Virus genome (UHGV): UHGV-0040636 | Direction: 5' to 3' (one strand) | DNA length: 46,671 nt | DNA from: a virus | Shown here: in pieces, positions 5,659 to 42,467 of the stretch | Position numbering within the stretch: position 1 is the stretch's first letter | How the letters are laid out: every line of letters begins with the position of its first letter | The notes under the pieces: model-generated | The model's input: the letters and a program-made list of their open reading frames with translations, nothing else | Told to the model about the DNA's origin: nothing | Databases searched by the model: none | Position numbers and translations under genes: made by a program

Positions 5659-5698
5659 CAATCTACGTCAACAAGTATTGACTAAGTGATGTAGAAAC
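5659..5698. promoter_or_regulatory. divergent promoter/operator region with two copies of the recurrent GTAGA element
   Basis: CAATCTACGTCAAC (minus-oriented TTGACGTAGATTG) at 5659..5672 and GTGATGTAGAAAC at 5686..5698 flank a nested inverted repeat GTCAAcaagtaTTGAC. It separates the leftward unit starting at 5631 from the rightward unit starting at 5731. Confidence 0.55.
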
Positions 5699-5730
5699 GT
5701 CAAGATGTTTTTCGAGAAGGAGTAGCAAAT

Positions 5731-5925
5731 ATGCCAAGACCACGACGCGAGCCGATGGACATTATCACCAGCATTGTGGAGAAGCGGCAGCCGCTGACAC
5801 TCCGTGATGTTCGCTACTTTGCCCGTTGCTATGTGGCGCTGGCTGATATGCCAAAGGATGAGATGTACCAGATGATTCGTGAGAATTTTAATGTTGATGA
5901 AAATAACCGGGTGACGACGAAATGA
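5731..5925 (+). CDS. hypothetical small protein (64 aa), possible DNA-binding
   Basis: First gene of the rightward unit, GGAG RBS, ATGA coupling to the next gene. Confidence 0.45.
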   Translation: MPRPRREPMDIITSIVEKRQPLTLRDVRYFARCYVALADMPKDEMYQMIRENFNVDENNRVTTK

Positions 5926-6413
5926 AAAAATGGAAATATCTGAAAGGTTATGAGGATGATTTTGCTGGCCATGACACGGCTTGTCTTGTAGTTAAGTCAG
6001 GAAGTACTGGTGAGATTTTCTATCTAAGCATAGATTACACTGGTCGCATTGAAGTGATTGAGGGTTGCGGGGATGTTGTTATTGCATACCGCGAGCCAAT
6101 TACCGACGAGCAAGACCTCAACGATTGCATTGGAGCGCCGGAGGCTGATGCAACAGAGCGGCTCATCACCGAGCGCGGTAGCCGATACGGCAAATTCAAA
6201 GATGGCGCTGAAATCATGCAGGAACTGAAAACCGTCATGCGCGAAGTGGATGGGTGGAACAATCTGACACCAAGCCAACGCGAGTCGCTAGACATGATTC
6301 AGCACAAGATTGGGCGCATTCTGAATGGCGACCCGACCTATGATGACAGCTGGAAAGACATTGCTGGCTATGCGACATTAATTGTTAATGAACTGAACGG
6401 AGAGATTAAATAA
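5922..6413 (+). CDS. hypothetical protein (163 aa)
   Basis: Coupled ORF. The C-terminal half (RESLDMIQHKIGRIL...DSWKDIAGYATL) resembles a conserved phage domain of unknown function, recalled weakly. Confidence 0.45.
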   Translation: MKKWKYLKGYEDDFAGHDTACLVVKSGSTGEIFYLSIDYTGRIEVIEGCGDVVIAYREPITDEQDLNDCIGAPEADATERLITERGSRYGKFKDGAEIMQELKTVMREVDGWNNLTPSQRESLDMIQHKIGRILNGDPTYDDSWKDIAGYATLIVNELNGEIK

Positions 6414-6721
6414 TGTCATTCTGCGACATCACCATCGCGCAACGAAACGCGAACTTTACCAATATCGCTGACACGTCAGCGCAACTGGTATCACTGAACA
6501 GCGACGGCAGCGCAGTGCTCAAGATCGGCACGGAAACAGCGCAATTCATCGTGCAGAATCTGTCACAGGAGAACGCAAAGCAGGTGCTGATTAGCACTGG
6601 TAGCGTGCTGTTTTTGGCTGGTAATTACAATGCACCGAATCTTGAGTGTTCACTGGTGCGCATCGTTGAAACTGCAGTTGAGGAATCTGTTAATGAGCCA
6701 GCAACACTGCCAGCAGAGTGA
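6413..6721 (+). CDS. hypothetical protein (102 aa)
   Basis: ATGT overlap with the upstream stop. No recognisable motif. Confidence 0.4.
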   Translation: MSFCDITIAQRNANFTNIADTSAQLVSLNSDGSAVLKIGTETAQFIVQNLSQENAKQVLISTGSVLFLAGNYNAPNLECSLVRIVETAVEESVNEPATLPAE

Positions 6722-6839
6722 TCAGTCCGCCTACATCGTTACGGATAATCGTGGTCGTCGCTATCTGGTGTTTTCTGGTAGCGTTGAGCATCAGAATACA
6801 ATTATGTTTGGATATCAAATCAAACCACTGTATGAGTGA
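6693..6839 (+). CDS. hypothetical protein (48 aa)
   Basis: ATG at 6693 with GAGGAA RBS. Overlaps the previous ORF in another frame. Confidence 0.3.
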   Translation: MSQQHCQQSDQSAYIVTDNRGRRYLVFSGSVEHQNTIMFGYQIKPLYE

Positions 6840-6933
6840 GGTATAAAATGGCGCTGAAAGAGTTCACCGACCCAGTCAAATCGCGCAAAGATATGGATGA
6901 GAGTGTGGACGAATACGAAGGTTGTTGAAGCAC

Positions 6934-6958
6934 AAGCCCCATTACGGGGCTTTTTTAT
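6934..6958. terminator. bidirectional rho-independent terminator
   Basis: AAGCCCC-ATTAC-GGGGCTT followed by TTTTTTATT. Convergent units meet here, and the last codons of Rz overlap the stem. Confidence 0.7.
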
Positions 6959-7433
6959 TGCGCAGTGAATTATATTGCGCCTCACATGCTAATCCCGCCT
7001 CTCTTGCCCTGTCAGCATAATCTGCCAGCTGCCGATTTCTTTCGACAGACTTGCTGAGCACGTCGGAGAGCAAAACTCCGGTTTCTGCGGCTGGATTGCC
7101 AATGGACTCAGCGGTGGAATATCCGACGAGCTGCTTGCGGATACTGGTGAGTTGTTGCTGCAACCTGCCAGACTTAGCAGCAGCATTGACAGCATCATTG
7201 CGCGCAGCGTCAATCCTTTGCTGTGCGTCGGCCTGAATCTTTTGCAGTTCTGCATTGCGTCGTTGCTCCTCTTGTTCGTCTGCGGCCTTTTGCTCTGCGA
7301 TTGCTTGAGCCTTGCCTTCTGCGTATCGCTGGTCGCCGTACTCTATAACCTCCCCGCGAATCCACAGCGCGCCAGCTGCAACAATTATAATAATTGCCAG
7401 CAGTCGCCAGTATTTAGCGAGAATCGACATCAT
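6942..7433 (-). CDS. Rz-like inner-membrane spanin (i-spanin)
   Basis: Start refined to ATGATG at 7433 (GGAGG RBS). N-terminal TM segment MMSILAKYWRLLAIIIIVAAGALWI, then a charged coiled coil rich in A/Q/E/R. Final gene of the lysis cassette. Confidence 0.7.
   Translation of the reverse strand: MMSILAKYWRLLAIIIIVAAGALWIRGEVIEYGDQRYAEGKAQAIAEQKAADEQEEQRRNAELQKIQADAQQRIDAARNDAVNAAAKSGRLQQQLTSIRKQLVGYSTAESIGNPAAETGVLLSDVLSKSVERNRQLADYADRAREAGLACEAQYNSLRNKKAP
6989..7198 (-). CDS. Rz1-like outer-membrane lipoprotein spanin (o-spanin), embedded in Rz +1 frame
   Basis: MMLSMLLLSLAGCS lipobox (LAGC) followed by a proline-rich periplasmic segment DIPPLSPLAIQPQKPE. Fully embedded in Rz, the classical arrangement. 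Confidence 0.65.
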   Translation of the reverse strand: MMLSMLLLSLAGCSNNSPVSASSSSDIPPLSPLAIQPQKPEFCSPTCSASLSKEIGSWQIMLTGQERRD

Positions 7434-7573
7434 CGCGCAGCCTCCATATAAAACACCGGCGAGTTGCAAACTGCACCAATTGTGAGCGGTTTTTAAGTGC
7501 GCGCCACGCCGACTCAATATTGCCTCCCCCGCTGGTTATGCGCACCCATTCCCGCACCAATACATCTCTCTGC

Positions 7574-7804
7574 TCACTCACCATCGCGCAGCCTCCGGTT
7601 TTCCTTCCTCATGCCATGCATCTTGCCGAGAATGCCAATCAGCATGATTGAATAACTCACCCCCTTAACCACAATTGGCGGTAGCGCTGCTTTCAGGTCG
7701 TCCGGCATCATTACCCATACATGCATCATTGCATCAGGCCATAACTGCAACAGTGAGCAGAATGAAATCCACGCGCCGAGCAGCCAGTTGCTTAGCTTTT
7801 TCAT
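7574..7804 (-). CDS. holin (class II-like, two TM segments)
   Basis: 76 aa, two hydrophobic helices and a charged C-terminus KMHGMRKENRRLRDGE. ATGA overlap with the lysozyme stop. Lies between the lysozyme and the spanins. Confidence 0.55.
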   Translation of the reverse strand: MKKLSNWLLGAWISFCSLLQLWPDAMMHVWVMMPDDLKAALPPIVVKGVSYSIMLIGILGKMHGMRKENRRLRDGE

Positions 7805-8265
7805 GCCACAACTCCGCCAGCATCCTTGTATACCTGAATCAGCTTATCCAGTTTCTGCTCATGCTGACCATAGCCAGCGCCCGGCAGTGAGGCCCAGCGG
7901 GAGCGGCATTTATGGATGGCATCAGCAATTCGACCAGCTTCAATGTCGGCAGTAGCCTTGCATTCATGGATTAGTTGCATTGCAATGGCGTCCTGCGATG
8001 CAGGAGAAAAGTCCGGCAAACGCAACTGCTTTTTGTACGCGTCATAAAACTTAGCCAGCACCTGATAGCGTCCGGCGGCAGTGGATTTGATGCCCAGCTT
8101 TGGCAGGCTAATCAGCTTGCGTGGGTGGTCGGAATAATCAGTAAACAGTGAGCCGCCAACAATCACATCATAACCATGATTATTGGTTTTCTGTCGCCCG
8201 TTATCCGTACCCTCGCTGTACGCCAGCATATCCAGAAACGCCTTCATGTTTTTGCTAATAGCCAT
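7801..8265 (-). CDS. R: phage lysozyme/transglycosylase, lambda R-like
   Basis: Start refined to ATG at 8265 (AAGAGG RBS). KAFLDMLAYSEGTDNGRQKTNNHGYDVIVGGSLFTDYSDHPR...ASLPGAGYGQ is near-collinear with the lambda R sequence recalled from memory (KAFLDMLAWSEGTDNGRQKTRNHGYDVIVGGELFTDYSDHPR...ASLPGAGYGQ). Confidence 0.85.
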   Translation of the reverse strand: MAISKNMKAFLDMLAYSEGTDNGRQKTNNHGYDVIVGGSLFTDYSDHPRKLISLPKLGIKSTAAGRYQVLAKFYDAYKKQLRLPDFSPASQDAIAMQLIHECKATADIEAGRIADAIHKCRSRWASLPGAGYGQHEQKLDKLIQVYKDAGGVVA

Positions 8266-8533
8266 ACCAGTAAACCTCTTTTTCAGTCTTGCGTTTTGCT
8301 TTGTCGCCAGTCTTCTCGCCCCATACGATGAAATGCGCAACAGCACATGAGAAGCAGCGAAGGTTGTGTTTCTTCAGTAACGTTGATTTGCGGAACTTGT
8401 CAATGCCAATGTCGGTAGCAAGACTCGTCAGCGCATCAAACTGATTCTGCGTTGTCTCAGTGGCGATGTAAGGCGATATATCCACGGCATCAGTGACTCC
8501 AAACGTATATTTGCCGCGTTGCGATAGTTCCAT
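8255..8533 (-). CDS. hypothetical protein (92 aa), first gene of leftward lysis unit
   Basis: Lies downstream of the minus-oriented element at 8605..8618. Overlaps the lysozyme start by 11 nt. Confidence 0.4.
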   Translation of the reverse strand: MELSQRGKYTFGVTDAVDISPYIATETTQNQFDALTSLATDIGIDKFRKSTLLKKHNLRCFSCAVAHFIVWGEKTGDKAKRKTEKEVYWYGY

Positions 8534-8577
8534 TCTGCCTCCTGTTCAAATAATGATTAATTCTATCACAACAGGTA

Positions 8578-8618
8578 TTGACGTAGATTGAGTGGTGGTG
8601 CATAGTATCTACATCAAA
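8578..8618. promoter_or_regulatory. overlapping divergent promoter elements (TTGACGTAGATTG plus-oriented; TTTGATGTAGATAC minus-oriented)
   Basis: Elements at 8578..8590 (+) and 8605..8618 (-) sit between the leftward lysis unit and a rightward small-gene unit. Confidence 0.5.
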
Positions 8619-8639
8619 CGATGATGTGAGGAAGAACTC

Positions 8640-8783
8640 ATGGTAATGGTCAAATTCAAAGAAAATGGACGCTGCGGAGTGTTCAATATTGAGCAAATTA
8701 AAATCCGTCCGTGCGGGAAAGTGGTTGCGCCATTTGGTCTGGTGCAGATGCGTGAAGTTGAGATTGTTGAATATATTAAGTGA
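8640..8783 (+). CDS. hypothetical small protein (47 aa)
   Basis: GAGGAAG RBS, ATG 8640. Its stop overlaps the start region of the next gene. Below the ORF-track cutoff. Confidence 0.35.
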   Translation: MVMVKFKENGRCGVFNIEQIKIRPCGKVVAPFGLVQMREVEIVEYIK

Positions 8784-8791
8784 GGTTGGTG

Positions 8792-9127
8792 ATGAAAGAA
8801 TTTAAGGGATACCCAGCACCATGGGATATGCGAATTGATAATGGCATGGCTATTTTTGATTGGCACCCATCATCCAAAGAGTCTGGCGCTCACTCTCATT
8901 TTGCTGAATGCGTAGTTTCAATGAGTTGCAGTCAAGAAGATGCTCAGGACTTCCTACTAGCTAATGCGGTATTGATGAGGGCATCACCAGACCTTCTTGC
9001 GGCACTCCAGCAGCTACTGGAAATCTACGACGACCACTCCGGAAAAGTCTGGACAACATCAAGCAAGCGTCGCGCTCTGGATAATGCGCGCGCGGCGGTT
9101 AATAAAGCGTTGGGAGAATCGAAATGA
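8792..9127 (+). CDS. hypothetical protein (111 aa)
   Basis: ATG 8792 with GAGG RBS. ATGA coupling to the next ORF. Confidence 0.45.
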   Translation: MKEFKGYPAPWDMRIDNGMAIFDWHPSSKESGAHSHFAECVVSMSCSQEDAQDFLLANAVLMRASPDLLAALQQLLEIYDDHSGKVWTTSSKRRALDNARAAVNKALGESK

Positions 9128-12538: not shown

Positions 12539-12586
12539 ATGTCACCAATAAAAAATCCCATCACGTTGGATGGGATTATAGCATGC

Positions 12587-13731: not shown

Positions 13732-13750
13732 AGTGATATCTCCGATAAAC

Positions 13751-13858
13751 CTGATGTAGATATACTATGCGCTCGGTGTAGATTGGTCAAGTGTGGTGAT
13801 GCGTATTTATCAACAACAATAATGAATGTTGACGTGGATTCGTTGTTGATGTAGATTG
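13751..13858 (+). promoter_or_regulatory. four tandem copies of the recurrent element upstream of the 13904 moron, overlapping a leftward sigma70-like promoter
   Basis: CTGATGTAGATAT (13751..13763), CGGTGTAGATTGG (13775..13787), TTGACGTGGATTC (13829..13841), TTGATGTAGATTG (13846..13858). TTGACG(13829)-N17-TAGATT(13852). The reverse strand reads TTGACC-N17-TAGTAT for the leftward operon. Confidence 0.55.
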
Positions 13859-13903
13859 CAATCATTGATGCAGCAATGGTGCTGCTGAAAAAAAGAGGGC
13901 TGG

Positions 13904-14488
13904 ATGATGGGATGCGATATTCATTTATACAAAGAGAAAATGATTGATGGGAAATGGGTTTCCGCTGACACATGGGTTAAGGAAGATGACTGGGATGGCT
14001 CAGAATACTTTGAGGTGCCTTGGAGCGAAAGATTCACTGATCGCAACTACAATCTCTTTGGTCTTTTGTGTGGCGGGGTTAGGTCTGAGCATCCTTACTC
14101 ATTCACCGAGCGTGGAATACCGTTTGATGTATGCACAGAGATTGCAGAAAATATTAATCGCTGGGGTTGTGATGGCCATTCTCATAGCTATCTTTATCTG
14201 CATGAGTTGAAATGCATGTTGGAATTTCTTGAAACTGTCACGGTGAATGTTTCAGGAATGAAAGATAAAGACCAACTGGAAGAGCTGCGTAAGTCAATCG
14301 CAAGCGGCAACCCTGACTGGAACCTATTATGGCCATACTGTGGATGGGCAAGCAGTGATAAATACGAAGAGTTCGACATTGATGTTCCAGCAAATGTAAT
14401 GCTTGGAGATGGCCTGAAAAAAATCATCTCTGGATTTGATGGCATTGATGGCGAAAATCATCGAATCGTGTTCTGGTTCGATAACTAA
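13904..14488 (+). CDS. stand-alone moron protein of unknown function (194 aa), Trp/Cys/His-rich
   Basis: Own promoter elements (x4), GAGGG RBS, own terminator. Opposite strand to the flanking structural genes. Motifs GCDIHLY, WGCDGHSHSYLYLHEL, WPYCGW; no family recognised. Confidence 0.6.
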   Translation: MMGCDIHLYKEKMIDGKWVSADTWVKEDDWDGSEYFEVPWSERFTDRNYNLFGLLCGGVRSEHPYSFTERGIPFDVCTEIAENINRWGCDGHSHSYLYLHELKCMLEFLETVTVNVSGMKDKDQLEELRKSIASGNPDWNLLWPYCGWASSDKYEEFDIDVPANVMLGDGLKKIISGFDGIDGENHRIVFWFDN

Positions 14489-19180: not shown

Positions 19181-19396
19181 TTAGTTTTTTTGTTGCTGCG
19201 CTAATCCTAACTGCTCATTGGCTACTTCGGCAGCTGATACAAGGATTCCTGCAAGTTCGATTGCCTGTTCTGGTGTCATAAACATGAAGGCATGCTCAGT
19301 CTCCAGCTCGACACGGTTAAACCTGGCTGAAATGATGATGTCATCACCACTTTTGTTTTTCATTGATGCACTGAACTCAGCATTTTCATTACTCAT
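19181..19396 (-). CDS. hypothetical protein (71 aa), first gene of leftward early unit
   Basis: About 30 nt downstream of the minus-oriented tandem elements at 19427..19456 (TTGACG-N17-TAGATT). Confidence 0.45.
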   Translation of the reverse strand: MSNENAEFSASMKNKSGDDIIISARFNRVELETEHAFMFMTPEQAIELAGILVSAAEVANEQLGLAQQQKN

Positions 19397-19426
19397 CTCT
19401 TCACCCTCGTTTGTTTCGATGAGTTC

Positions 19427-19456
19427 AATCTACATCAGTTGTGATTCTACGTCAAC
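19427..19456 (-). promoter_or_regulatory. leftward promoter with two tandem copies of the recurrent element
   Basis: On the minus strand TTGACGTAGAAT-cacaa-CTGATGTAGATTG. The -35 TTGACG and -10 TAGATT are separated by 17 nt. Confidence 0.55.
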
Positions 19457-19478: not shown

Positions 19479-19776
19479 CGTGGGGTAAATTTTTGCCCGT
19501 GGGGCAGGTCGTGGGGAAGGGGGCATTCCCCACGGCAAATCCTTGTGCCATGCGGGTTTTAACATGTTTGGGTAAGTGGGGCAGATTTCATACCCATCCC
19601 CTTATAAATATATTCAAATAATCCGTTTGTTAATATTATGTTAATTACTATCTATAATATGAATAATAATATTACCCATTAACCCAAATAATAATAATTA
19701 TATTATATTACATATACTTAGAGTGAAACTTCGTGGGGAAGGTTGGTTGCCCCACGGCTGCCCCACGTTACCCACG
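19479..19776. repeat. putative replication origin: CGTGGGG iterons in direct and inverted orientation flanking a ~120 bp >85% AT core
   Basis: Direct CGTGGGG at 19479, 19498, 19510. Inverted CCCCACG at 19528. AT-rich core 19600..19720. Direct at 19732. Inverted at 19750, 19761 and (CCCACG) 19771. Immediately upstream of the replication genes. Confidence 0.55.
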
Positions 19777-23475: not shown

Positions 23476-23492
23476 AAATTGACCCTTGATTG

Positions 23493-23530
23493 TTGGTGTA
23501 GATTGAGTATAAGCTAACTGACGTAGAAAC
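23493..23530 (+). promoter_or_regulatory. rightward promoter elements for helicase (TTGGTGTAGATTG and CTGACGTAGAAAC); reverse strand carries a sigma70-like primase promoter
   Basis: Elements at 23493..23505 and 23518..23530 (plus). On the minus strand TTGATG-N18-TATACT overlaps the complement of the second element. Confidence 0.5.
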
Positions 23531-23550
23531 ATCAACAAAGGTTAGTTGCT

Positions 23551-25479
23551 ATGACACATAAAATAGACAAGATGATTTCAGAGATTGATATTAATCTGCT
23601 GAAATCTTATCTGGATACTGGTGATATCGAGCCAAGACCATATCAGTGGTTGATATACAAGTTAACTGGTGATGTTATTCGTCATTATGTTGGCCCTAGC
23701 TATGTAACAGCAAGCGTCGGTAGTGGAAAGTCACTGATGATTGCCATGATAGCAAAGCGTTTTCAGGAGATGGGCTATTCAGGGATGATTTTATCAAGAC
23801 AGGGCGAAATAGTGGAGCAAGATGCGGAAGAGCTTTGGTCACTTGGTGTTAGGAACTCGCTATTCAGTGCTTCGTTGGGTAGGAAAAGTTCTACGTATCC
23901 AATAATCTGTGGTTCTGAGGGGACTGTTATAAATGCTTTGTTTGATAAAAAGGATGAGTCGGGGAATGTTATTGCAAAAGGTGCGCTCTCTGACTTTTGC
24001 CCAAGATTCCTGCTTATCGATGAAAATCATATGGTTAATGACATTGATGTTGTTAATAATGGTGATACGCAGTATGCAGTGATAATTAATGAGCTAATGA
24101 AAAGGTGCAAAGATAAGCACGGCCATGAGTTGAGAATAATAGGTTATACAGGATCACCGTTTCGCGGAACTACATCAATAAAAGGCGCTTTCTGGAAGAA
24201 AGAGATTATCAACATAGACACCAAGTACATGGTTGAAAACGGTTTTCTTGTGCCAACAATTTTTGGTCTTCATGATGTTGATAGTCTGCATTATGATCTT
24301 TCAGATTTTCATGGTTCAGATGTTGATGGTACTCAGGACTTTACCGCCGAGCAGCTCAAGCAGATGCAGAAAGAAATTCTTGAGCAAGGTACGTTGACGC
24401 AGAAAATCATGCTCAAGGTTATGGAGTTGACTAAAAACAGGAACGGAGTGCTAATTACATGTGCTGGTAAAAAGCATTGTCAGGAGGCAGCAAAATATTT
24501 GCCTGAAGGAAGTTATTCAATAGTTACAGAAGATATGGGGTCAAAAGCAAGAAGGAAGGCTCTAAAAGATGCATACACCGGGCGCAAAAAATTCACATTC
24601 CAGATAGCCGCCCTTACCACTGGCGTAAATATACCGTTATGGGATACGAGCTGCATATTACGAAAAATAATGTCACTCACCCTTCTTGTGCAGTTGCTTG
24701 GTCGCGGGATGCGCTTGCTGAAGAAAGAACAAATTGATGCCGGGTATCATAAAGAAGACCATCTTGTTCTTGATTTCTCAGGCACGATGTTTGAGCTTGG
24801 TCAGCTGTATGAAGACCCAATACTGGAAGAGGCTGAAGCACAACGTTCAAAACGCAGTGGCGAACAAGTTCCGTGTCCTAAGTGCGGAACAATGAACAGC
24901 CCATATGCGCGTCGCTGCATTGGCAAAGATGCATTGTCGCCAGATGGTAGATGCGAGGAGTTTTTCAGCTACATCCGTTGCGGTTTTGACAAGCACGGAA
25001 TCCGTATTTTTGATGATGGCTGCGGAACTAAAAACGACCCTACTGCTCGCTATTGCCGACATTGCGATCATGTTTTGCGCGACCCGAATGCGGCACTGAA
25101 TGAGCGTGCGTATACGGATAATGAATGGACTGAAGTTAAAGACTTCAAGATTGAATTAACGAAAGATGAAAAAGGTGTTGTTTATCGTTATTTCATTATG
25201 AAGGAAAACGGGAAGGAAGGATGGGCTAATGAGGTCTTTTATCCTTTTGGCCGGCAGGAGAAGTATCTTAAAAATCAGTTTAAGATTAAAGGGTTGCTAA
25301 ACCATGTATCTGACAGGAAGTTGATTGATAACCTTATGAATTGCCACAGCGCAAAAGCATTCATGGCGTTTACTGGCCTTATCCGTGCCCCAAAGCGAAT
25401 CACGCACCGGTTTAACGATAAAGGTCGTGACATAATCCACAGAAAAGATTTTACAGGAGAACAAAGTGAAGCAGCTTGA
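23551..25479 (+). CDS. SF2 DEAD/DEAH-box helicase with C-terminal zinc ribbons
   Basis: Walker A SVGSGKS, motif II LLIDENH. C-terminal CPKCG...RRCIG...RCEEF...CGFD...GCGTKND...YCRHCDH forms several Cys4 ribbons. Confidence 0.75.
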   Translation: MTHKIDKMISEIDINLLKSYLDTGDIEPRPYQWLIYKLTGDVIRHYVGPSYVTASVGSGKSLMIAMIAKRFQEMGYSGMILSRQGEIVEQDAEELWSLGVRNSLFSASLGRKSSTYPIICGSEGTVINALFDKKDESGNVIAKGALSDFCPRFLLIDENHMVNDIDVVNNGDTQYAVIINELMKRCKDKHGHELRIIGYTGSPFRGTTSIKGAFWKKEIINIDTKYMVENGFLVPTIFGLHDVDSLHYDLSDFHGSDVDGTQDFTAEQLKQMQKEILEQGTLTQKIMLKVMELTKNRNGVLITCAGKKHCQEAAKYLPEGSYSIVTEDMGSKARRKALKDAYTGRKKFTFQIAALTTGVNIPLWDTSCILRKIMSLTLLVQLLGRGMRLLKKEQIDAGYHKEDHLVLDFSGTMFELGQLYEDPILEEAEAQRSKRSGEQVPCPKCGTMNSPYARRCIGKDALSPDGRCEEFFSYIRCGFDKHGIRIFDDGCGTKNDPTARYCRHCDHVLRDPNAALNERAYTDNEWTEVKDFKIELTKDEKGVVYRYFIMKENGKEGWANEVFYPFGRQEKYLKNQFKIKGLLNHVSDRKLIDNLMNCHSAKAFMAFTGLIRAPKRITHRFNDKGRDIIHRKDFTGEQSEAA

Positions 25480-25891
25480 TAGCGGTATATGGGTATTTGA
25501 TAGCGGTTATCGCGGAGAATGTCCGAAAGAGGAGACTGAACAGATTGGTTACGGCACATGGATGCAAAGCCAATTCCCTGACGTGCTCTGGTTTCATGTA
25601 CCTAACGAAACTGGCACATCAAGCATGGTGCAGTTTGTACTGAAGCGCCAGAAGATGGGGGTTAAGACTGGAATAGGCGACAATGTGATAATGACGCCGG
25701 GAGTGAAGCACAGTTGCGGAATGATTGAGGCAAAGCGCCGAGATAAAAGCAAAAGCAGGGTTAGCAAGGAGCAATCTACTGTGTTAACTGAGATGTGCAG
25801 GCTTGGTCATTATGCCGCCATCGCTTACGGTCTTGATGAACTAAAAAAAGCCACGCTTTTCTATTTTGGCTTGCCTTTTGATGTGGATTGA
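25466..25891 (+). CDS. VRR-NUC domain nuclease
   Basis: GTG start with AGGAG RBS. GIGDNVIMTPGVKHSCGMIEAKRRDKSKSRVSKEQ matches the PD..E.K...Q core of VRR-NUC. Lies next to a helicase, a common pairing in phages. Confidence 0.55.
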   Translation: MKQLDSGIWVFDSGYRGECPKEETEQIGYGTWMQSQFPDVLWFHVPNETGTSSMVQFVLKRQKMGVKTGIGDNVIMTPGVKHSCGMIEAKRRDKSKSRVSKEQSTVLTEMCRLGHYAAIAYGLDELKKATLFYFGLPFDVD

Positions 25892-25900
25892 TGTAGATTC
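25878..25900 (+). promoter_or_regulatory. two overlapping copies of the recurrent element (TTGATGTGGATTG / TTGATGTAGATTC)
   Basis: Overlaps the VRR-NUC stop and precedes the recombination operon. TTGCCT-N17-TAGATT. Confidence 0.45.
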
Positions 25901-30186: not shown

Positions 30187-32629
30187 TATAATAAATGCTC
30201 CTTTGTGAATTTGATGTATATTGTATCACGATGATGGGATGGTATATTCGTACATGTCATCGCTGTATTCACTCATGGTCAGAGTGGTAGTCCCATCACT
30301 TCCCGGATTCTTTTGACTGACAACCCATAGCGTGGTGTCCAGTTCTTTCTCTGTGCTCAGGACATAACGAGATTCGGATTGTACGTTTGTACCGTCCCAG
30401 ATATTTAGCTGAAAATCAGACGGCAGGTTGCATGTGAATGTATGCAATCCGGTTACTGTAGATGGCAATCTGCCTGATGTGCTTCCATCCGAACTGGTAA
30501 TCACAACATAAAGATTATCATCAGCCGTTAGCTGCTCGCTGGTTGTGAATACGTTTCCGTTGCGCGCTTCAATAACGCCAGTCTGTTGTACGTCATCATA
30601 CATGTCGACGACCTGAATCATATCCCCTACATTAACCCATTCTCCATCCGCCAGTGCCTTAATTTCCATGCTGCGGCGGGAATAGATAAGGCGGCGGCAT
30701 TCAAGTATTGCCCGGTCAACAGCCTGATAGCGATTGCGAACATAAAGCATGTCGAATTTCTTCGCTTTGGTTGGTTCACCCTCGACAATTCCGCTGTCGG
30801 TAATTCGATAATAAACATTGGCCTGCTTATTTGTTGTTGGGTCGCGATACTCGATGTTAACGCCATCAAAAGTGCCGGGAAGACTGATATCGTAACTCAG
30901 TTTGTAGCCATCGCTCTGTGTGTTTCTGGTATTAAATACAGTTGCCGGATATTCTCGTTTCTCATCGCGCGAGAAACTTATTACGCCATCATCCCAGAAT
31001 GCAGTGACACGCGCCGCATCACAAATGGTTTGCAGACGCTCACCGATGCTCTTATCCTCATCATCAAACGTGTAATCAAAATAACCAAGACGCTCATCAG
31101 GCAGGCTGTCGGAAATTTCATACAGCTTCACAATATCAATCGTGTTTTCTGGATTGCCAGCGGTAATCAGCCAGTTGTGTAGTACGGCATCAGCAAAGCT
31201 ACGGGATGGCGCAAGTGTGTAGCGTACAGTGCCAGTATCACGGTTGTATCCGATGGTATGGCGCGTTATTAAGGCATTGTATTTCCTGTCACGGCTGCCT
31301 GTGGCGTTCTCGGTGGCGCGGACAATGACTTTAACTACCGTGTCATCTGGATACGAAACATTGTTACGGGTGACGATTGAATGGACTTCATCAAGCTGAA
31401 TGATCGATTGCTGTGTGCTGTTGTTAGTCCTTGTAAACTGAACAGCGTATCTGGCATTCCCATATGATGGAATTATTTTCCTTGTGTAATAGTAGGTATC
31501 CGCCCCGCCAGCCACAAAGGTATATGTGGTTGATTGGTATGAGCCTGCAATCTGCACGTTATCATCATCCACCGCCCACCACTCAGCTTTGACAATAGCA
31601 CCCTGATCTTCACCAAATTGAGCAACAAAGTGGAACCACAGCTGATCACCTTCTATCGGTGAGAAATACGGTCCTGAAACAAGAGGTTGGTTGTCAGTAA
31701 GGTTGAAGTAAGTGTTATTGATGGTTACGCCATTTAAGGATGATATCGGCGCGCCTGAGTAGTTAATGTTATTAATTATAAATGTGTACCAGTAATCAAC
31801 AGGTGGAATATTTCCATCATCTGTTTCTGATGCTGACACAAGACTACCTGACAAGGTGACGTTTTCAGTGACCGACGCGCCGCCTCCAAGCGCGTAAGTG
31901 ATGTTTAGTTTGAAAACCACATCATGAGGCATAACCAGATCAATGAAGTAATCGAAAGCGGAATTTTTTGGTATTTTTACAGCTATTTGTCCGCCAGCAA
32001 AGTCAGTGCTGGTCACCGATGTTGTTGTGGCTGACTCAATGACAACAGAGTTAGTGTCGTTTGGCCCATACAGTTCCTGACCGTCAACATCATCAAATGC
32101 GTAAGGTTCAAGAACAACCGGAATAACTTCTCCAGGCTGATAAATTGTATAGCTCGCACCAGCCAGTGAACCTAGGTTTGACTCGGAGTAACGCACGGAA
32201 GAAACATCATATTTGCCGAGGCCAAAGTTCATGAACTCGGTGACATATTTAATATTGTTGATGTATTCGAACAATGATTCTTGAAGCAAATCAGGAAACG
32301 CACGAATCTGCCCGAAGTTATCAGGACGCGCCTCGCCGTTGCGCGCAATATTCGTTTGCGCTTTAAGGCTAGTGTTTGGTGATGTTTTTGAGCCGGTATC
32401 CGTTTTTGGCGTGGATACTTTCGGCGTAAGAAATGAGAAAATCTTCGTTACTGGTTTCAGTATCGCACCGATCAGGTCGCCAATTGCGCCGGATGGTTGG
32501 CAATAAACGTTGACCACATCGCCATCACGCAAGCAGAAGGAAAGCTCATCATCTTCACCAAGCACTCTGCCATTTACCGCAATTGAAATGCTGGCTGGAA
32601 GATTTGATTTATTAAGCCACTTCCACAGG

Positions 32630-34014
<1,385 letters not shown>

Positions 34015-37067: not shown

Positions 37068-37107
37068 CCTGAATTTGACTGATGTTGATTATATCATCTC
37101 AGTGGTG

Positions 37108-37137
37108 TTGACACCTGCTAGGTGGTGATGTAGATTC
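37108..37137 (+). promoter_or_regulatory. sigma70-like promoter TTGACA-N17-TAGATT containing the recurrent element
   Basis: TTGACA 37108..37113, TAGATT 37131..37136. GTGATGTAGATTC at 37125..37137. Drives the plus-strand moron embedded in the tail module. Confidence 0.6.
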
Positions 37138-38056: not shown

Positions 38057-38057
38057 A

Positions 38058-38803: not shown

Positions 38804-38854
38804 TTCGATCTCCGAATTGTGTTAGCTGCTAACGTGGTGATTATACCACAGGTG

Positions 38855-38884
38855 TTGACAGTGATTATTTTGTGGTGTAGATTG
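38855..38884 (+). promoter_or_regulatory. sigma70-like promoter TTGACA-N17-TAGATT facing a non-coding stretch
   Basis: TTGACA 38855..38860, TAGATT 38878..38883. TGGTGTAGATTG copy at 38873..38884. Confidence 0.55.
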
Positions 38885-38889
38885 TATTT

Positions 38890-39364
38890 CAGATGGTTTT
38901 CGCGAGCGACTTTGCGGACTTTTTAGAAACTGACCACAAAGATAAATGCAAACGATGATGTTGTTCTGATGGCGGCGTAACAGCCTGTAAGTCAGCAAGG
39001 TCTTCCGATTCCTTGTAAACAAATTCGGCGCACTGCGTCCCTGAGGTGTGATTAATAAGTCAGGGAACATAACAGGTAAGAGCATTGGCGCATATCAGCG
39101 GAACTCGAACCCATTGCGCAGGCGACACAGACGTGTGTTTCAGTGCTCTTGCCGTTGTGGTTCTTAATAGTTCGCCTGTGTAAATAGCGTCCGTAGTTGG
39201 AATAACGGAAGTGGCAAGCAACATCGGCAACCACAACACTTAATATCCAGCGTTATCGCAATCATATGTAGGGGTATGTATGGGTTACGGGGCTGGATAT
39301 TAAGAAAGCACGCTGGCAATGCTTAAACCAGTAATAAGGCCGCCAAGTGCGGCTTTATTTATTT
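38890..39364 (+). ncRNA. candidate non-coding transcript (~460 nt) between promoter 38855..38884 and terminator 39336..39364
   Basis: No plus-strand ORF longer than 21 codons. Contains a 13-bp perfect inverted repeat CTTAATATCCAGC/GCTGGATATTAAG (39239..39304) and ends in GCCGC-CAAGT-GCGGC plus TTTATTTATTT. Confidence 0.35.
39336..39364. terminator. rho-independent terminator (strong on plus strand; possible attenuator for the leftward tail operon)
   Basis: GCCGC-CAAGT-GCGGC followed by TTTATTTATTT. Overlaps the stop codon of the 39359..39775 gene. Confidence 0.55.
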
Positions 39365-39775
39365 CACAACCCGCAAAAGCAGCTCATGCACAGGTCTCTT
39401 CTCTTCCGTTAACATCGGCCTACCAAGTGGCGCTTGCAACTGGATGTAGTTCACGCATGAATCAATCGGATGTGTCTTGATGTATTCGATAATCTCATTG
39501 GCCTTCGCATCAACATCAGCCACGTTATACTGCCCATGTTTGCCAACAACATACAGAGAGAAATAGAAATCACCGCCGAGTCCATCCATAACCTGCGTAC
39601 CGCCATTGGATTGCAGGACAATAAATTGCTCATTGCCGTCTCCGGTGTCATTCCAGAACTGCAACTGCGAAGTCCATCCATCATACAATCCAGCATCCTG
39701 AAGATATGCATCAACCAGCTCAAGCATGTTCATATTAAACCCCAATATTGCAATATCGATGCACATATCATACAC
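39359..39775 (-). CDS. tail terminator / tail completion protein (putative)
   Basis: 138 aa. Position between the HK97 gp10-like gene and the major tail protein, interrupted by the HNH insertion. Confidence 0.4.
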   Translation of the reverse strand: MYDMCIDIAILGFNMNMLELVDAYLQDAGLYDGWTSQLQFWNDTGDGNEQFIVLQSNGGTQVMDGLGGDFYFSLYVVGKHGQYNVADVDAKANEIIEYIKTHPIDSCVNYIQLQAPLGRPMLTEEKRPVHELLLRVVK

Positions 39776-39902
39776 TACCTATGTCACGTAGGCGTGGAAC
39801 CCGAAACGACACACAGGCAACAATGAATTTAACGCCCTTGTCAGTATGGTTTGTTGCAACCATGTTCCACCTGACAGGGGCGTTCCCTTTTGGAGTGAGT
39901 AA

Positions 39903-40394
39903 ATGATTTCAGAGCGGGATTACATAGCAATCGCGTCAAGAGTTAAATACGACCCGATTACCGGATTGTTCATCTGGGCTGTAAGTTGCGGGAAAATATC
40001 AAAAGGTGATATTGCAAATTATCACAACGACGCAGGATACATAACACTTGGGAAGAAAAGATTAAGGGCGCACCGAGTGGCTTGGTTTATCCATTATGGA
40101 TATGTCCCTGAGCATGAAATTGATCACATAAACAATATTCGTGATGATAATAGAATTTCAAATCTGAGGGAGGCCAGTGACTGCGAGAACGCAAGGAACA
40201 CAAAGATATCTAAATCAAACACGTCTGGATATAAAGGAGTTCATTTTTGCAAGTACACGGGGAAATGGAGAGCCACGGTAAAGATGCATGGGAAAAGCTA
40301 TCATCTTGGTAGGTTTTCAGACAAAGAAGCCGCCCATAAAGCCTATTGCAAAAAAGTAGATGAACTGTTTTTGGAGTTCGCAAACCACGGCTAA
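39903..40394 (+). CDS. HNH homing endonuclease with C-terminal AP2 domain
   Basis: YITLGKKRLRAHRVAWFIHYGYVPEHEIDHINNIRDDNRISNLR is an HNH_3-type core (H...N...N). SGYKGVHFCKYTGKWRATVKMHGKSYHLGRFSDKEAAHKAY is a typical AP2 domain. Lies on the opposite strand to the flanking structural genes. Confidence 0.75.
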   Translation: MISERDYIAIASRVKYDPITGLFIWAVSCGKISKGDIANYHNDAGYITLGKKRLRAHRVAWFIHYGYVPEHEIDHINNIRDDNRISNLREASDCENARNTKISKSNTSGYKGVHFCKYTGKWRATVKMHGKSYHLGRFSDKEAAHKAYCKKVDELFLEFANHG

Positions 40395-40789
40395 ATCTTC
40401 ATTTCTTTTTTTATCACTGAATCAATGAGGCTGCGAGTTTTATCGGCAGCCTTTGTTAAGAATCTAGGTTCAGCATTCGGCGACCAGTATGTGCTATTGC
40501 CGTTGCTGCGCGGTTTCCCTGCAAGTTTTCCGCTGGCATTGTGGACGTACAGCGCATATTTCGCAGAGTAGCCAACCTTGCCAGTGATTCGAGTTCCGCT
40601 AACTTCCACAGTATCAAACTGACTGTTAATCAGCGTCGATGTATCAATCGGCGTCAACGTGGCTGATTCGGTGCGGATGATGTATGTCGCTGACTTCATA
40701 GCGCGCACCGCTTTCGTGGCGATTATCTCATCCACAATTTGCGAAGTTCTCTCTACGGCCTGCCTGACGCCTCTTAATTTCGCTGGCAT
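40391..40789 (-). CDS. HK97 gp10-like head-tail joining protein
   Basis: TLTPIDTSTLINSQF...YALYVHNA resembles the PVDTGALR...YA.YVEFG signature of the HK97 gp10 family. Confidence 0.5.
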   Translation of the reverse strand: MPAKLRGVRQAVERTSQIVDEIIATKAVRAMKSATYIIRTESATLTPIDTSTLINSQFDTVEVSGTRITGKVGYSAKYALYVHNASGKLAGKPRSNGNSTYWSPNAEPRFLTKAADKTRSLIDSVIKKEMKI

Positions 40790-41130
40790 TATGTCACCAG
40801 TGCGAAATCAGGCGGCTCAGCACGATTGAACGTGTTGCCATAATTAATCACATTCAGAATCTGGTTTGCGCCAGCCGCCAGCGGGTCAGCTTCTGTCACC
40901 GTTCCAGTCATGATGTAATCACCAACCTTCGCGCCAGTGTATTCTGTCCAGAAAGTATTCTTCTGCACAATCTCATTGCCTTTCGCATCAGTCGATACAT
41001 CATCGTTAAAGCCGTAATCACACATGATGCTTACTGGTGCATCAAAAGTCGGCTTTCCGTACTTGTCAGTGCCGCTTTTGTGCCAGATTGTGCATGGTTG
41101 CGTGTAGCTCCAGTTAGCCAGCGAAGTCAT
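40789..41130 (-). CDS. head-tail adaptor / head closure protein (putative)
   Basis: 113 aa. ATGA coupling on both sides, within the connector gene block. Confidence 0.4.
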   Translation of the reverse strand: MTSLANWSYTQPCTIWHKSGTDKYGKPTFDAPVSIMCDYGFNDDVSTDAKGNEIVQKNTFWTEYTGAKVGDYIMTGTVTEADPLAAGANQILNVINYGNTFNRAEPPDFALVT

Positions 41131-41519
41131 TTACATTTACCCCCTCGTACAACCGCAAACCACGGCTTACCGCTTCCGTCAGGGTCTTCCACTAAATCGC
41201 CAGTGCATCCCGCTGTATCCAGTAGTTTCATCTGATTGTACAGCGCCACCCACGGCTTGCTGCCATACGCGAATGATTGTGATGCGCCAGATGGTGCGCT
41301 TTGACTGGTAACGTAGCGACCAGCGGTATTTGCGCTAATCAGGATGGAAGCCCACAGCATGATCGCATTTTGTCGGCATTCATCGTTTGGATAGTTAAGT
41401 TCAAGGCATTCACTGATTGATGCCACAAGGCACAGAATACCGGACGCATCCGTTGTGGTAATAGTCATTCCACGGGATGCCATCTGGCTTACTAATTCTT
41501 CAGGTGTTGGTGCTGCCAT
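41127..41519 (-). CDS. head-tail connector protein (gp6-like, putative)
   Basis: Start refined to ATG 41519 (MAAPTPEEL). Position in the connector block. Confidence 0.4.
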   Translation of the reverse strand: MAAPTPEELVSQMASRGMTITTTDASGILCLVASISECLELNYPNDECRQNAIMLWASILISANTAGRYVTSQSAPSGASQSFAYGSKPWVALYNQMKLLDTAGCTGDLVEDPDGSGKPWFAVVRGGKCK

Positions 41520-41784
41520 TTTTTTTCGACTCCCGTACCTTCCACCACATTTCAAAGAGGTTTTTTATTACCAGAGACAGAGCGCCGAGAATTGACGCTA
41601 CTGCCGCCCACTCTGTCAGGCTGTGTGGAATCATAGCCTCAAAATAAGATTGCGTGACAGGTGTTTGCTCTGCGACTTTCAGGCCGATGCCAGTGCCAAT
41701 AGAAGCATATCCAGCCTTATCAATCACCTGCCCTGCCGTTCCGCTTATAATCTGCTCTGCGACTTGCCTTAGTGCTCCGTTCAT
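41500..41784 (-). CDS. hypothetical protein with C-terminal TM segment (94 aa)
   Basis: WAAVASILGALSLVIKNLFEMWW hydrophobic helix. Overlaps the connector gene start. Confidence 0.4.
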   Translation of the reverse strand: MNGALRQVAEQIISGTAGQVIDKAGYASIGTGIGLKVAEQTPVTQSYFEAMIPHSLTEWAAVASILGALSLVIKNLFEMWWKVRESKKNGSTNT

Positions 41785-41816
41785 TGCGTGTCTCGCTGAT
41801 GATATGTTTCCAGCAC

Positions 41817-42257
41817 TTATAGATTTGAATCAGCGAAAAAACAATGGCGACCACGCCAAGAATAATGTCCAATTTCGCCGCCCCATTTAAAAGTGATGGA
41901 AAGGATGAACAGATGGATGCCGATAATAATAAATGCGTACTGCGCATGAAGCGGCGTTTCTACAGGCGTGATAAATTCCCATACGAATGACTCTATCGCA
42001 ACCAGCCATTCGTAAAGGCTCATCGTCAGCACGCAGAGCGCCATCTTTGTACTTTTGCGCAGTGCAATAGCCGGAAACAACCAGACCATAGACTGCGCAA
42101 GGTAATACAGATATTCGGCGGGAAATGAATCAACAAGCACCCATCCAAGATACACAGACATCACCATTGCCGGAATGAACACCAGAAACGCGACCATGCC
42201 AGTGCAGGCGAAACCCAGCACATACATGATCATGATGGCAACGTCTGCGCCGAACAT
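41817..42257 (-). CDS. polytopic inner-membrane protein (146 aa, 4-5 TM)
   Basis: Very hydrophobic throughout. TAATG junction with the upstream basic peptide gene. Confidence 0.45.
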   Translation of the reverse strand: MFGADVAIMIMYVLGFACTGMVAFLVFIPAMVMSVYLGWVLVDSFPAEYLYYLAQSMVWLFPAIALRKSTKMALCVLTMSLYEWLVAIESFVWEFITPVETPLHAQYAFIIIGIHLFILSITFKWGGEIGHYSWRGRHCFFADSNL

Positions 42258-42258
42258 T

Positions 42259-42377
42259 ATTTCTTACCGCGCGATGGTGAGCGGGTGGAACCGTTTGGCT
42301 TCACTGCGCCGGTTTTGCCGCCAGTTTTGGTGTTGCCAGTGGCGCGCGAACGAGAAGGCGAATTGGTTGAACCCATG
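42259..42377 (-). CDS. highly basic S/T/G/K/R-rich peptide (39 aa)
   Basis: AGGAG RBS 8 nt upstream of ATG 42377. MGSTNSPSRSRATGNTKTGGKTGAVKPNGSTRSPSRGKK. Below the ORF-track cutoff. Confidence 0.4.
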
Positions 42378-42423
42378 TTTAAATCTCCTGTTGTTTGATT
42401 AGCATGATTTTAGCATATTCCTG

Positions 42424-42467
42424 TTGACGTAGATTGGTGCGGCGTTTATAGTTAGTGACGTAGAAAC
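42424..42467 (+). promoter_or_regulatory. rightward promoter: TTGACGTAGATTG ... TATAGT ... GTGACGTAGAAAC
   Basis: TTGACG 42424..42429, N17, TATAGT 42447..42452. Second element copy at 42455..42467. Precedes the plus-strand unit starting at 42494. Confidence 0.55.

Follow-up and report, generated by a model that had tools for sequence, protein, structure and literature searches.

Dispersed operators that are asymmetric and oriented with transcription have a precedent in two sets of phage repressor sites. The repressors of Cluster A mycobacteriophages recognise asymmetric sites of 13 bp, 20-30 in number, that follow the direction of transcription and in some cases lie inside the early promoter (PMC6550527), and the C1 protein of phage P1 has 22 dispersed asymmetric 17-bp operators (ATTGCTCTAATAAATTT) on one genome (PMC8546580). 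Here we describe a 13-base word (13-mer), with the consensus TTGAYGTAGATTG (A type) and a variant TGAYGTAGAAAC (B type), which is present in 18 copies in the virus genome UHGV-0040636. This stretch of 46,671 nucleotides (46.7 kb), called the window below, is an essentially complete siphophage genome of the group of Vi II-E1, DS8, C1 and IME207, with a mosaic identity of about 90% to E. coli phage C1 (genus Deseoctovirus according to GenBank), Shigella phage DS8 and their kin. All copies lie within the region that RNA polymerase would cover. Because an asymmetric 13-bp site is found anywhere within the polymerase footprint of early promoters, the best reading of the 13-mer appears to be that of a lineage-specific asymmetric operator for a phage regulator, placed over sigma70-type early promoters, an interpretation that we hold at about even strength.

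The 13-mer resembles the stoperators of L5 and Bxb1 in being an asymmetric site of about 13 bp, with 18 copies here, that is oriented with transcription. The L5 sites are however mostly away from promoters and block elongation, whereas the sites described here are all in the promoter core; L5 is temperate and its binder is the immunity repressor, whereas the present lineage looks virulent, with no recognisable plasmid or lysogeny module among the proteins examined, and the two consensus sequences are unrelated. The P1 operators differ in sequence and length and are bound by a lysogeny repressor, and no C1-like protein was recognised among the window proteins screened. Lobocka and colleagues are said to have described in 2004 that the P1 C1 operators control many sigma70 promoters and that P1 has a separate late-promoter class; the P1 late promoters need the Lpa activator, unlike the plain extended -10 promoters reported below. 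A phage-wide operator or promoter word is known in kind. What is unusual is that a -35-like and a -10-like half are fused, that the word is used in four registers, that it is paired with a distinct late class of extended -10 promoters, and that the candidate regulator of a virulent-type phage belongs to the ParB family. No description of the motif was found in the literature on this phage group (Jerseyvirinae promoters, Vi-typing phage E1, Deseoctovirus, the KlebP_265 paper and the string GTAGATTG were searched), and the annotators of relatives mark generic promoters only.

A working gene map was made with a simple caller based on codon usage and ribosome-binding sites, which gave 93 genes and 7.8% non-coding DNA and was consistent with the annotation of C1 and ASO78B in collinear parts. 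All 18 copies listed in a preliminary description of the sequence were recovered on the strands given there, to within 1-2 nt, and the enrichment it proposed to test was borne out in the window and in relatives. The exact core TGAYGTAGA was observed 13 times against 0.63 expected from dinucleotide-preserving shuffles, with 0/100 shuffles reaching 13, and the 13-mer at no more than two mismatches was observed 18 times against 4.6 expected. In an unbiased scan of 8-mers, GACGTAGA, GTAGATTG, TGACGTAG and GATGTAGA were among the most over-represented words of the genome, and the sole 8-mer ranking above the motif words was the terminator word AAAGCCCC. The copies are confined to non-coding DNA, as had been claimed, except that the pair at 25878-25900 overlaps the last codons of the open reading frame (ORF) 25466-25891. 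Counting ten separate regions, we calculate the probability of an all-non-coding distribution by chance as ~0.078^10, or roughly 1e-11.

No copy lies between the genes of an operon. Each is in a promoter-bearing gap that heads a unit, and the motif is absent from convergent gaps and from gaps containing terminators. The next gene is co-oriented for 16/18 copies and one further copy heads a non-coding unit. The earlier statement that every copy points to the adjacent operon has exceptions, namely copy 38872, which has no downstream ORF on its strand, and copies 13751 and 13773, whose distance to the + strand gene is 119-141 nt and which overlie a leftward promoter; C1 keeps orthologs of both over this promoter without the + strand gene. 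Copies usually occur two per promoter region. Their spacings are 10, 17, 17, 22, 25 and 31 bp, with two inverted pairs in addition, a wider range than the 17-25 bp tandem arrangement first proposed. The succession of an A copy and a TGACGTAGAAAC copy was seen at 23493/23518 (25 bp) and 42424/42455 (31 bp), but the third supposed case, 5659/5686, has its copies on opposite strands.

The relatives compared were C1, ASO78B, Klebsiella phage KP591P3 and Tbat1_6, the last two having about 74% identity to the window in shared genes. Each of the four gave 13-19 hits with a position weight matrix (PWM) at a score of at least 13; about 90% of these hits were intergenic and most had the orientation of the gene that follows. 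The motif words also headed the de novo 8-mer ranking of KP591P3. When IMG/VR was scanned for paired copies, 84 loci were obtained, almost all of them on 45-49 kb contigs of this lineage. Salmonella phage Jersey, which belongs to a different lineage, shares hosts and host polymerase and served as the negative control, has 0 copies; since the hosts are common to both, the motif is lineage-specific and not a generic enterobacterial promoter feature. Two outliers of the IMG/VR scan, L085 and L068 (contigs of 57.6 kb and 12.3 kb), were rejected as motif loci: they consist of tandem iterons of 26 bp (GATTCCACTGATATATGACGTAGATT) and their context is unrelated, so that the 12-mer overlap was judged a chance event. 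In these arrays (L085 688-800, L068 3000-3100) GATTCCACTGATATATGACGTAGATT, sharing 12 nt with the motif, is repeated three to four times and grades into DnaA-box-like repeats (TTATGTGGA, ATCCACA, GATC).

The result for Jersey also bears on the idea that the 13-mer is the site of a host protein common to Escherichia, Salmonella and Klebsiella, for example a weak DnaA-, FNR- or IHF-like site, which we consider most improbable. By eye, GTGGATT, which occurs in two copies only, resembles the complement of a DnaA box (TGTGGATAA) and TTGATnnnnAT resembles half an FNR site; the most invariant bases of the motif, G.GTAGA, fit neither consensus, and no known enterobacterial factor with this consensus was found. 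Inspection against the consensus sequences of DnaA, FNR, IHF, MetJ and ECF-sigma factors likewise gave no match to the invariant bases, and YGTAGATTG agrees with the DnaA box TTATNCACA (complement TGTGNATAA) at 6/9 positions.

The best intergenic sigma70-like matches of the window coincide with motif copies, and four registers relative to the sigma70 hexamers were observed: over the -35, filling the spacer, over the -10 (as TAGATT) and at about +1. In the -10 register are TTGACA-N17-TAGATT at 37108 and 38855 and TTGACG-N17-TAGATT at 13829 and 19455(-), the four exact TTGAC[AG]-N17-TAGATT promoters that had been noticed before, together with TTGCCT-N17-TAGATT at 25871. The -35 register is represented by TTGACG-N17-TATAGT at 42424 and TTGACG-N17-CATAGT at 8578, and the spacer register by TTGATT-g-(13-mer)-ag-TATAAG at 23486 and TTGACT-aa-(13-mer)-gt-CAAGAT at 5678. 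In the register at about +1 the TGACG core starts 3 nt (42455), 5 nt (23518) and 3 nt (5659(-)) past the -10. Twelve promoters (37108, 38855, 42424, 13829, 19455(-), 8578, 25871, 23486, 5678, 5703(-), 13790(-) and 23535(-)) were assigned to the sigma70 -35/-10 type, which is defined by TTGACA-like and TATAAT-like hexamers at a spacing of 16-18 bp and by A and T as second and sixth bases of the -10; this is a property of the promoters and not of each copy, as about half of the copies are neither hexamer. A copy is found within -35 to +15 of 12/15 intergenic TTGAC words. At the divergent junctions 5632-5730, 8534-8639, 13732-13903 and 23476-23550 a single pair of copies overlies elements of both the leftward and the rightward promoter.

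Partner hexamers were assessed in 104 ortholog-collapsed contexts from all lineage sequences against flank shuffles. A -35 was found 16-18 bp upstream in 30 contexts (4.9 expected), a -10 at 16-18 bp downstream in 22 (9.4 expected), and a -10 ending 2-6 nt upstream in 54 (17.8 expected), so that partner hexamers are 2-6 fold above the shuffles; they are themselves conserved. With these conserved hexamers and their 16-18 bp spacing, host RNA polymerase with sigma70 can account for the motif promoters, and the copies, contrary to one earlier suggestion, do not form a promoter class in place of sigma70. The placement in multiple registers favours an operator over a promoter element. In phage P2 the directly repeated, non-palindromic half-sites of the C operator flank the -10 of the early promoter. 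Similarly, 23493 and 23518 flank TATAAG, and 42424 and 42455 flank TATAGT; P2 has one operator region with a fixed 22-bp spacing, whereas ten regions with spacings of 10-31 bp are present here.

These promoter matches are also what would be expected if sigma70 were the only reader. On that account, which we regard as rather unlikely, the 13-mer fuses TTGAC (contacted by region 4) with TAGATT (contacted by region 2) and works without any phage factor, taking the part of the -35 or of the -10 or, when near +1, imitating a -10 and so causing sigma70-dependent promoter-proximal pausing; its additional conserved bases would tune strength or pausing, and the copies would have spread by duplication of promoter-UTR (untranslated region) cassettes. 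The four perfect TTGAC[AG]-N17-TAGATT promoters and the strong enrichment of partner hexamers fit it, strict co-orientation suits sigma70 recognition, and the annotators of ASO78B labelled orthologous sites as TTGACA-N-TATAAT-like promoters. The 5' UTRs behind different copies are alike (ATCGAAAC, AACAATAA), which suggests cassette duplication.

The pattern of constraint between E. coli-type and Klebsiella-type phages, compared in alignments, speaks against an exclusive role of sigma70. Bases that sigma70 does not read are fixed while the remaining spacer drifts, namely TGAYG 5' of the -10, GTAGATTG 3' of the -35 and the G within TAGATT. At the immunity promoter TTGACA is fixed, 11 nt of the spacer are free and TGAYGTAGATT is fixed; at the ParB-operon promoter TTGACGTAGATTG is fixed, 9 nt are free and TATAGT is fixed, after which TGAYGTAGAAAC and the whole 5' UTR are conserved. 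The -10 of promoter 19455 is TAGATT within a motif copy in one group and TATAGT without a copy in the other, the copy in the -35 register being kept. At the helicase promoter the -10 is TATAAG or TACTAT, with the flanking copies kept, and the proximal copy is B-type or A-type according to the group. The G at position 3 of the hexamer and the G after it are conserved, and sigma70 reads both positions weakly. The TGAYG at -17 to -13 is off the canonical extended -10 position (TG at -15/-14): its TG falls at -17/-16 and its YG at -14/-13, and no motif promoter in the promoter scan had TG in the extended -10 place. Neither the spacer-filling copies 23493, 5686 and 25878 nor GTAGATTG beside the -35 correspond to a known sigma70 contact. 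Two copies have TGGATT and three have TAGAAA; a sigma70 -10 requires A-11 and T-7, so these copies, lacking A-11 and T-7 respectively, cannot be -10 elements themselves. In the same genomes the extended -10 hexamers drift among TATAAT, TACAAT, TAGAAT and TAAAAT, whereas TAGATT does not, and Jersey lacks the motif. The earlier view that the element is more than a host sigma70 consensus therefore holds, in that it is lineage-specific and sigma70-unread bases are fixed between diverged relatives. Alignments of many loci anchored by blastn recovered close relatives alone and were too shallow to add resolution.

A third possibility is that the 13-mer is read by a redirected RNA polymerase, through a phage activator, sigma appropriation or a sigma-like factor, and marks a phage-specific promoter class. 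The motif is asymmetric, co-oriented and lineage-specific, its proximal copies are 19-33 nt from start codons, and the copies in the -35 register span -35 to -23, near the position of a MotA box. We nevertheless find this improbable, as four registers include positions over the -10 and +1 where an activator would clash with polymerase, and such systems need no canonical TTGACA at exactly 17 bp. Occurrence in several registers relative to sigma70 hexamers is unlike a promoter for a T7-like RNA polymerase, with its roughly 20 invariant bp and fixed start, and no RNA polymerase was annotated in six related genomes or recognised in the window. The copies also differ from T4 MotA middle promoters, where an activator box centred at about -30 stands in for the -35, since those in the -35 register keep the canonical TTGAC and others lie over the -10 or +1. 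No RNA polymerase, sigma, MotA-like or AsiA-like protein was recognised among about 60 proteins screened, many of them of unknown function; homologues of MotA and AsiA did not turn up in these general screens, which included no search aimed at them.

The gene map suggests about 22 transcription units, of which about 11 are headed by a co-oriented copy: 5631(-), 5731(+), 8640(+), 13904(+), 19396(-), 23551(+), 25924(+), 37172(+), the non-coding unit at ~38890(+), 42494(+) and, arguably, 8533(-). The preliminary description had the motif marking essentially every unit start, which is not the case, as the capsid, portal, tail, connector and lysis units use the extended -10 sequence TGnTAnAAT. By gene content, the units headed by the motif comprise small early genes, helicase/nuclease/recombination functions, superinfection immunity and the ParB operon, and the structural and lysis operons are preceded by the extended -10 without a good -35. 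There are 13 genomic TGnTAnAAT sites, of which 9 are intergenic, and all 9/9 are co-oriented. Seven are located 26-36 nt before a start codon, those of the capsid (2994-3002(-)), lysis (8560-8568(-)), portal (12575-12583(-)), tailspike (30220-30228(-)), tail/tape-measure (37088-37096(-)), major tail (38840-38848(-)) and connector (42407-42415(-)) genes; the other two are a tail site at 32787-32795(-), 86 nt upstream, and 5654-5662(+), 68 nt upstream. This class was present in 6/6 genomes examined, with 8-10 intergenic sites each and the same genes downstream. Neither the motif nor TGnTAnAAT precedes the helicase unit 19853(+) or the HNH gene 39903(+). The latter (39903-40394(+)) encodes a homing endonuclease with HNH_3 and AP2 domains between two minus-strand head-tail genes and is not at this position in C1. 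Within 12554-12583(-), the portal extended -10 (TGCTATAAT) overlaps the 5' arm of the terminator hairpin of the upstream operon; transcripts from the portal promoter would lack the full hairpin and would read through.

A division into an early -35/-10 class and a structural class with a TGn-extended -10 and no -35 is shared with the systems of T4 AsiA and of gp39/gp76 of Thermus phage P23-45. AsiA and gp39/gp76 shut off -35/-10 promoters and spare extended -10 promoters. They act on sigma or polymerase without a DNA word, whereas the early class here carries the 13-mer, and no AsiA- or gp39-like protein was identified among the proteins screened. Under the operator reading, a phage DNA-binding protein would occupy the sites as it accumulates and would turn down the early regulon, its own operon included, presumably by occluding the promoters. 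The structural and lysis operons would escape this control because their extended -10 promoters carry no motif in their own orientation.

To find proteins that might bind the sites, about 60 small proteins were screened against Pfam and PHROG, and DNA-binding domains were detected in only three, a ParB-like protein, a MarR-like protein and the HNH-AP2 homing endonuclease. The ParB/KorB-like helix-turn-helix (HTH) protein (269 aa, 43440-44249(+)) comes from the operon that copies 42424 and 42455 precede. It matches Pfam HTH_ParB (2.4e-11) and KorB (1e-5), its closest solved structures are those of Spo0J/ParB, Noc and KorB (8qa8), aligned across both domains, and it is closer to chromosomal Spo0J/ParB than to KorB. 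The MarR-like winged-helix protein (162 aa, 4456-4944(-)), in the operon fronted by copy 5659, matches PHROG 1687 (5e-55) and Pfam MarR_2 (0.011). The two phage groups share one motif consensus, so that the part of the binder that reads DNA would be expected to be conserved between them. Between E. coli-type and Klebsiella-type phages the ParB-like protein has 80% identity and an unchanged HTH; the MarR-like protein has 34% identity and diverges in the putative recognition-helix region as assigned from the alignment. The ParB-like protein is thus a reasonable candidate, as first suggested, and most likely the best one, while the MarR-like protein is a weaker candidate.

The candidate invites comparison with KorB of plasmid RK2, another HTH protein of the ParB family, which is a global transcriptional repressor acting on numerous promoters of its replicon, among them that of its own operon. 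KorB operators (OB) are 13-bp palindromes that adjoin promoters or lie far from them, whereas the motif described here is asymmetric and always within the promoter core. As in the parS, OB and NBS systems, a ParB-family protein is encoded on the same replicon as the motif. It could be argued that the copies are loading, centromere-like or nucleoid-organising sites for this protein with no direct role in transcription, their coincidence with promoters arising because sites are tolerated in intergenic DNA only. The protein is a genuine ParB-family member with an N-terminal ParB domain and is highly conserved, and no other candidate parS was seen, the genome having no recurring perfect palindrome or parS-like site. 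The copies are however in register with promoter hexamers and absent from convergent and terminator gaps, the sites are not palindromic, and no plasmid or lysogeny module was recognised in this virulent-type phage, so that we judge this explanation very improbable. A palindromic reading of the motif itself was tried and rejected: outside a central ACGT, present only if Y = C, the halves match at 4/8 positions by inspection.

In favour of the ParB-like protein as binder, the Jilinviruses ECO1230-10 and ep3 encode a ParB homolog 43-50% identical to that of the window, and both have an exact TGATGTAGA in a region of about 90 nt just 5' of the ParB operon, for which we calculate a chance probability of ~1e-3. 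ECO1230-10 has a second exact copy downstream of the ParB operon. These sites are at L007 3855-3863(+) and 1389-1397(-) and at L096 2877-2885(-). A non-coding block of 101 nt (39139-39239; L007 1076-1176), closed by a 9-bp stem (GTTGTGGTT/AACCACAAC), is 96-97% identical in eight phages of the lineage and in ECO1230-10, an unrelated Jilinvirus, where a TATAGCG-TGATGTAGA site precedes it by about 200 nt. Neither strand of the block folds with significant stability, and it matched no Rfam family and no tRNA. The only other repeat in the genome, CCCCACG in seven copies, was rejected as the ParB target since it tracks the helicase module and not ParB, being restricted to genomes with this helicase module (the window and C1). 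All 7/7 genomic copies of CCCCACG/CGTGGGG are at 19479-19767, flanking an AT-rich stretch of about 150 nt 5' of the helicase operon 19853(+), and this region is a probable replication origin.

Several points weigh against an operator bound by the ParB-like protein. The motif is not the palindrome of 13-16 bp seen in parS, OB and NBS systems, and the characterised sites of ParB, KorB and Noc are, to our knowledge, palindromes. The variable spacing of the copies offers no fixed dimer geometry. Kp4862-1, which encodes a 48% ParB homolog, has no motif, a case that we also judged uninformative for the link with ParB, and the Jilinvirus site may have come with other shared DNA. Many of the screened small proteins are of unknown function. 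All copies that occupy the -35, -10 or +1 register run in the direction of transcription, as a pure sigma70 reading also predicts. As to method, the gene map is heuristic, the early and late labels have gene content as their sole basis, and the PWM was trained on the very sites of the preliminary description, of which the exact-core counts and the de novo word scans are independent.

If the operator reading is correct, the likeliest protein to occupy the sites would be the ParB/KorB-like protein 43440-44249. A bolder version, which we put forward as unlikely, is that a ParB/KorB-type protein, possibly dependent on cytidine triphosphate, is the global early-to-late switch of a virulent enterobacterial siphophage. 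It would load at asymmetric, half-parS-like sites that every sigma70 early promoter, its own included, carries in one of the four registers, and would silence the early regulon, while the extended -10 structural and lysis operons keep firing. The B-type copy GTAGAAAC is one inserted base away from GTGAAAC, which we take to be one half of chromosomal parS.

The individual copies are described below in map order. Copy TTGACGTAGATTG at 5659-5671(-) begins 2 nt (its TGACG core 3 nt) past the -10 of a leftward promoter, TTGACG(5703-5698)-N18-AATACT(5679-5674); its TAGATT is 28 nt 5' of the ATG at 5631(-), and it overlaps the + strand extended -10 TGGTACAAT at 5654-5662. The B-type copy GTGATGTAGAAAC at 5686-5698(+), 33 nt 5' of the ATG at 5731, fills the spacer of TTGACT(5678-5683)-N17-CAAGAT(5701-5706), and at its 3' side it directly adjoins the leftward promoter's -35. 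At 8578-8590(+) the TTGACG of TTGACGTAGATTG supplies the -35 to the promoter of the 8640(+) operon, TTGACG-N17-CATAGT(8601-8606). The inverted copy TTGATGTAGATAC at 8605-8617(-) is over the -10/+1 of this promoter and 72 nt from the lysis ATG at 8533; the lysis gene has its own extended -10, TGATAGAAT, at 8560-8568(-).

Two weak copies are associated with the leftward promoter TTGACC(13790-13785)-N17-TAGTAT: CTGATGTAGATAT at 13751-13763(+) is just 3' of its -10 (13767-13762), and TCGGTGTAGATTG at 13773-13785(+) is in its spacer. In the pair that follows, the TTGACG of TTGACGTGGATTC at 13829-13841(+), whose own hexamer TGGATT is unusable as a -10, is the -35 for the TAGATT (13852-13857) of TTGATGTAGATTG at 13846-13858(+), forming TTGACG-N17-TAGATT 5' of the gene 13904-14488(+). 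The segment 13732-14517 is an insertion relative to C1, with a + strand gene of 194 aa without a Pfam match and four motif copies; C1 has at that place three motif-like sites (the two upstream orthologs and a third) within a 76-nt gap that separates two minus-strand genes. On the minus strand, TTGACGTAGAATC at 19443-19455 provides the -35 (TTGACG, 19455-19450), which in Klebsiella-type relatives has TATAGT as its partner and not a second motif copy, and CTGATGTAGATTG at 19426-19438 provides the -10 (TAGATT, 19432-19427), 30 nt 5' of the ATG at 19396.

Copy TTGGTGTAGATTG at 23493-23505(+) fills the spacer of TTGATT(23486-23491)-N16-TATAAG(23508-23513) and, read in the inverted sense, falls near +1 of TTGATG(23535-23530)-N18-TATACT(23511-23506), the leftward promoter of the primase. 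The TGACG core of the B-type copy CTGACGTAGAAAC at 23518-23530(+) starts 5 nt past TATAAG, with 21 nt from the end of the copy to the ATG at 23551; an A-type sequence (GTAGATTGAG) takes its place in Klebsiella-type relatives. Of the overlapping pair on the + strand, TTGATGTGGATTG at 25878-25890 is in the spacer of TTGCCT(25871-25876)-N17-TAGATT and over the last codons of the preceding ORF, and TTGATGTAGATTC at 25888-25900 has the -10 TAGATT (25894-25899), 24 nt 5' of the start of gene 25924. Copy GTGATGTAGATTC at 37125-37137(+) supplies the -10 (TAGATT, 37131-37136) to TTGACA(37108-37113)-N17 and drives the superinfection-immunity unit 37172(+). Similarly, GTGGTGTAGATTG at 38872-38884(+) supplies the -10 (TAGATT, 38878-38883) to TTGACA(38855-38860)-N17, driving the non-coding unit described in the next paragraph. 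In front of the ParB operon, the TTGACG of TTGACGTAGATTG at 42424-42436(+) is the -35 of TTGACG-N17-TATAGT(42447-42452), whose TATAGT all relatives share, and the TGACG core of the B-type copy GTGACGTAGAAAC at 42455-42467(+) starts 3 nt past TATAGT, at about +1, the copy ending 27 nt before the ATG at 42494. Copy 42455 is near-invariant across the lineage, the Y position alone varying, and is followed by an invariant 5' UTR and a variable first ORF. The cassette TATAGT..TGAYGTAGAAACAACAATAAATGTTAGAGGTGATGA (42447-42493; orthologs in about 40 IMG/VR loci) is nearly invariant and the first ORF behind it differs, an arrangement that resembles a constant socket for the expression of exchangeable accessory genes.

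The conserved non-coding unit of about 200 nt behind copy 38872 (38886-39092(+), promoter at 38855) is an unannotated RNA resembling transfer-messenger RNA (tmRNA). It carries AAAGAUAAAUGCAAACGAUGAUGUUGUUCUGAUGGCGGCGUAA, a tmRNA-type resume context followed by the tag frame ANDDVVLMAA-stop (38948-38980). Klebsiella-type phages have ANEEMYLAVA-stop in the same frame and at the same stop position, and an IncY (P1-like) plasmid has ANDDLMMVAA-stop; the RNA is also at L093 2478-2860, L094 ~1480-1700 and L095 ~1480-1700. Rfam tmRNA models gave sub-threshold matches to the mRNA-like domain, with no Rfam match anywhere in the window at gathering thresholds, and RNAalifold showed compensatory base-pair changes both in the helix around the stop codon and in the hairpin that follows. 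ARAGORN reported nothing for this unit, relaxed thresholds included. Unannotated copies of about 91% identity are present in 591/5,426 complete E. coli genomes; one of them is in a lambdoid prophage between the Q and holin genes and is followed by a T-arm and an acceptor-like 3' end. Copies are also present in 76 plasmids, of which 74 are non-mobilizable and hence probably phage-plasmids. Where checked (two plasmids, two related phages), the copies are upstream of tRNA genes. tRNAs were rejected as the target of the 38872 promoter, as the window has none, though relatives have downstream tRNAs. No description of this RNA was found in the literature. It is common to lytic phages, lambdoid prophages and plasmids of phage-plasmid type; it may outweigh the motif in importance and merits a separate study.

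Phages of this group (Vi II-E1, DS8, C1, IME207 and several Klebsiella phages) have been widely isolated and used for typing and biocontrol, and their gene regulation is unstudied. The analysis provides a regulatory map, with about ten early promoter regions that share one 13-base word, about nine extended -10 late promoters and a single strong candidate for the regulator. Knowledge of the 13-mer and of both classes of promoter can improve the annotation of several hundred related genomes and aid the design of engineered phages. If the ParB-like protein is indeed the binder, transcriptional control by the ParB family, known from KorB, would be extended to the timing switch of a virulent phage through asymmetric sites.

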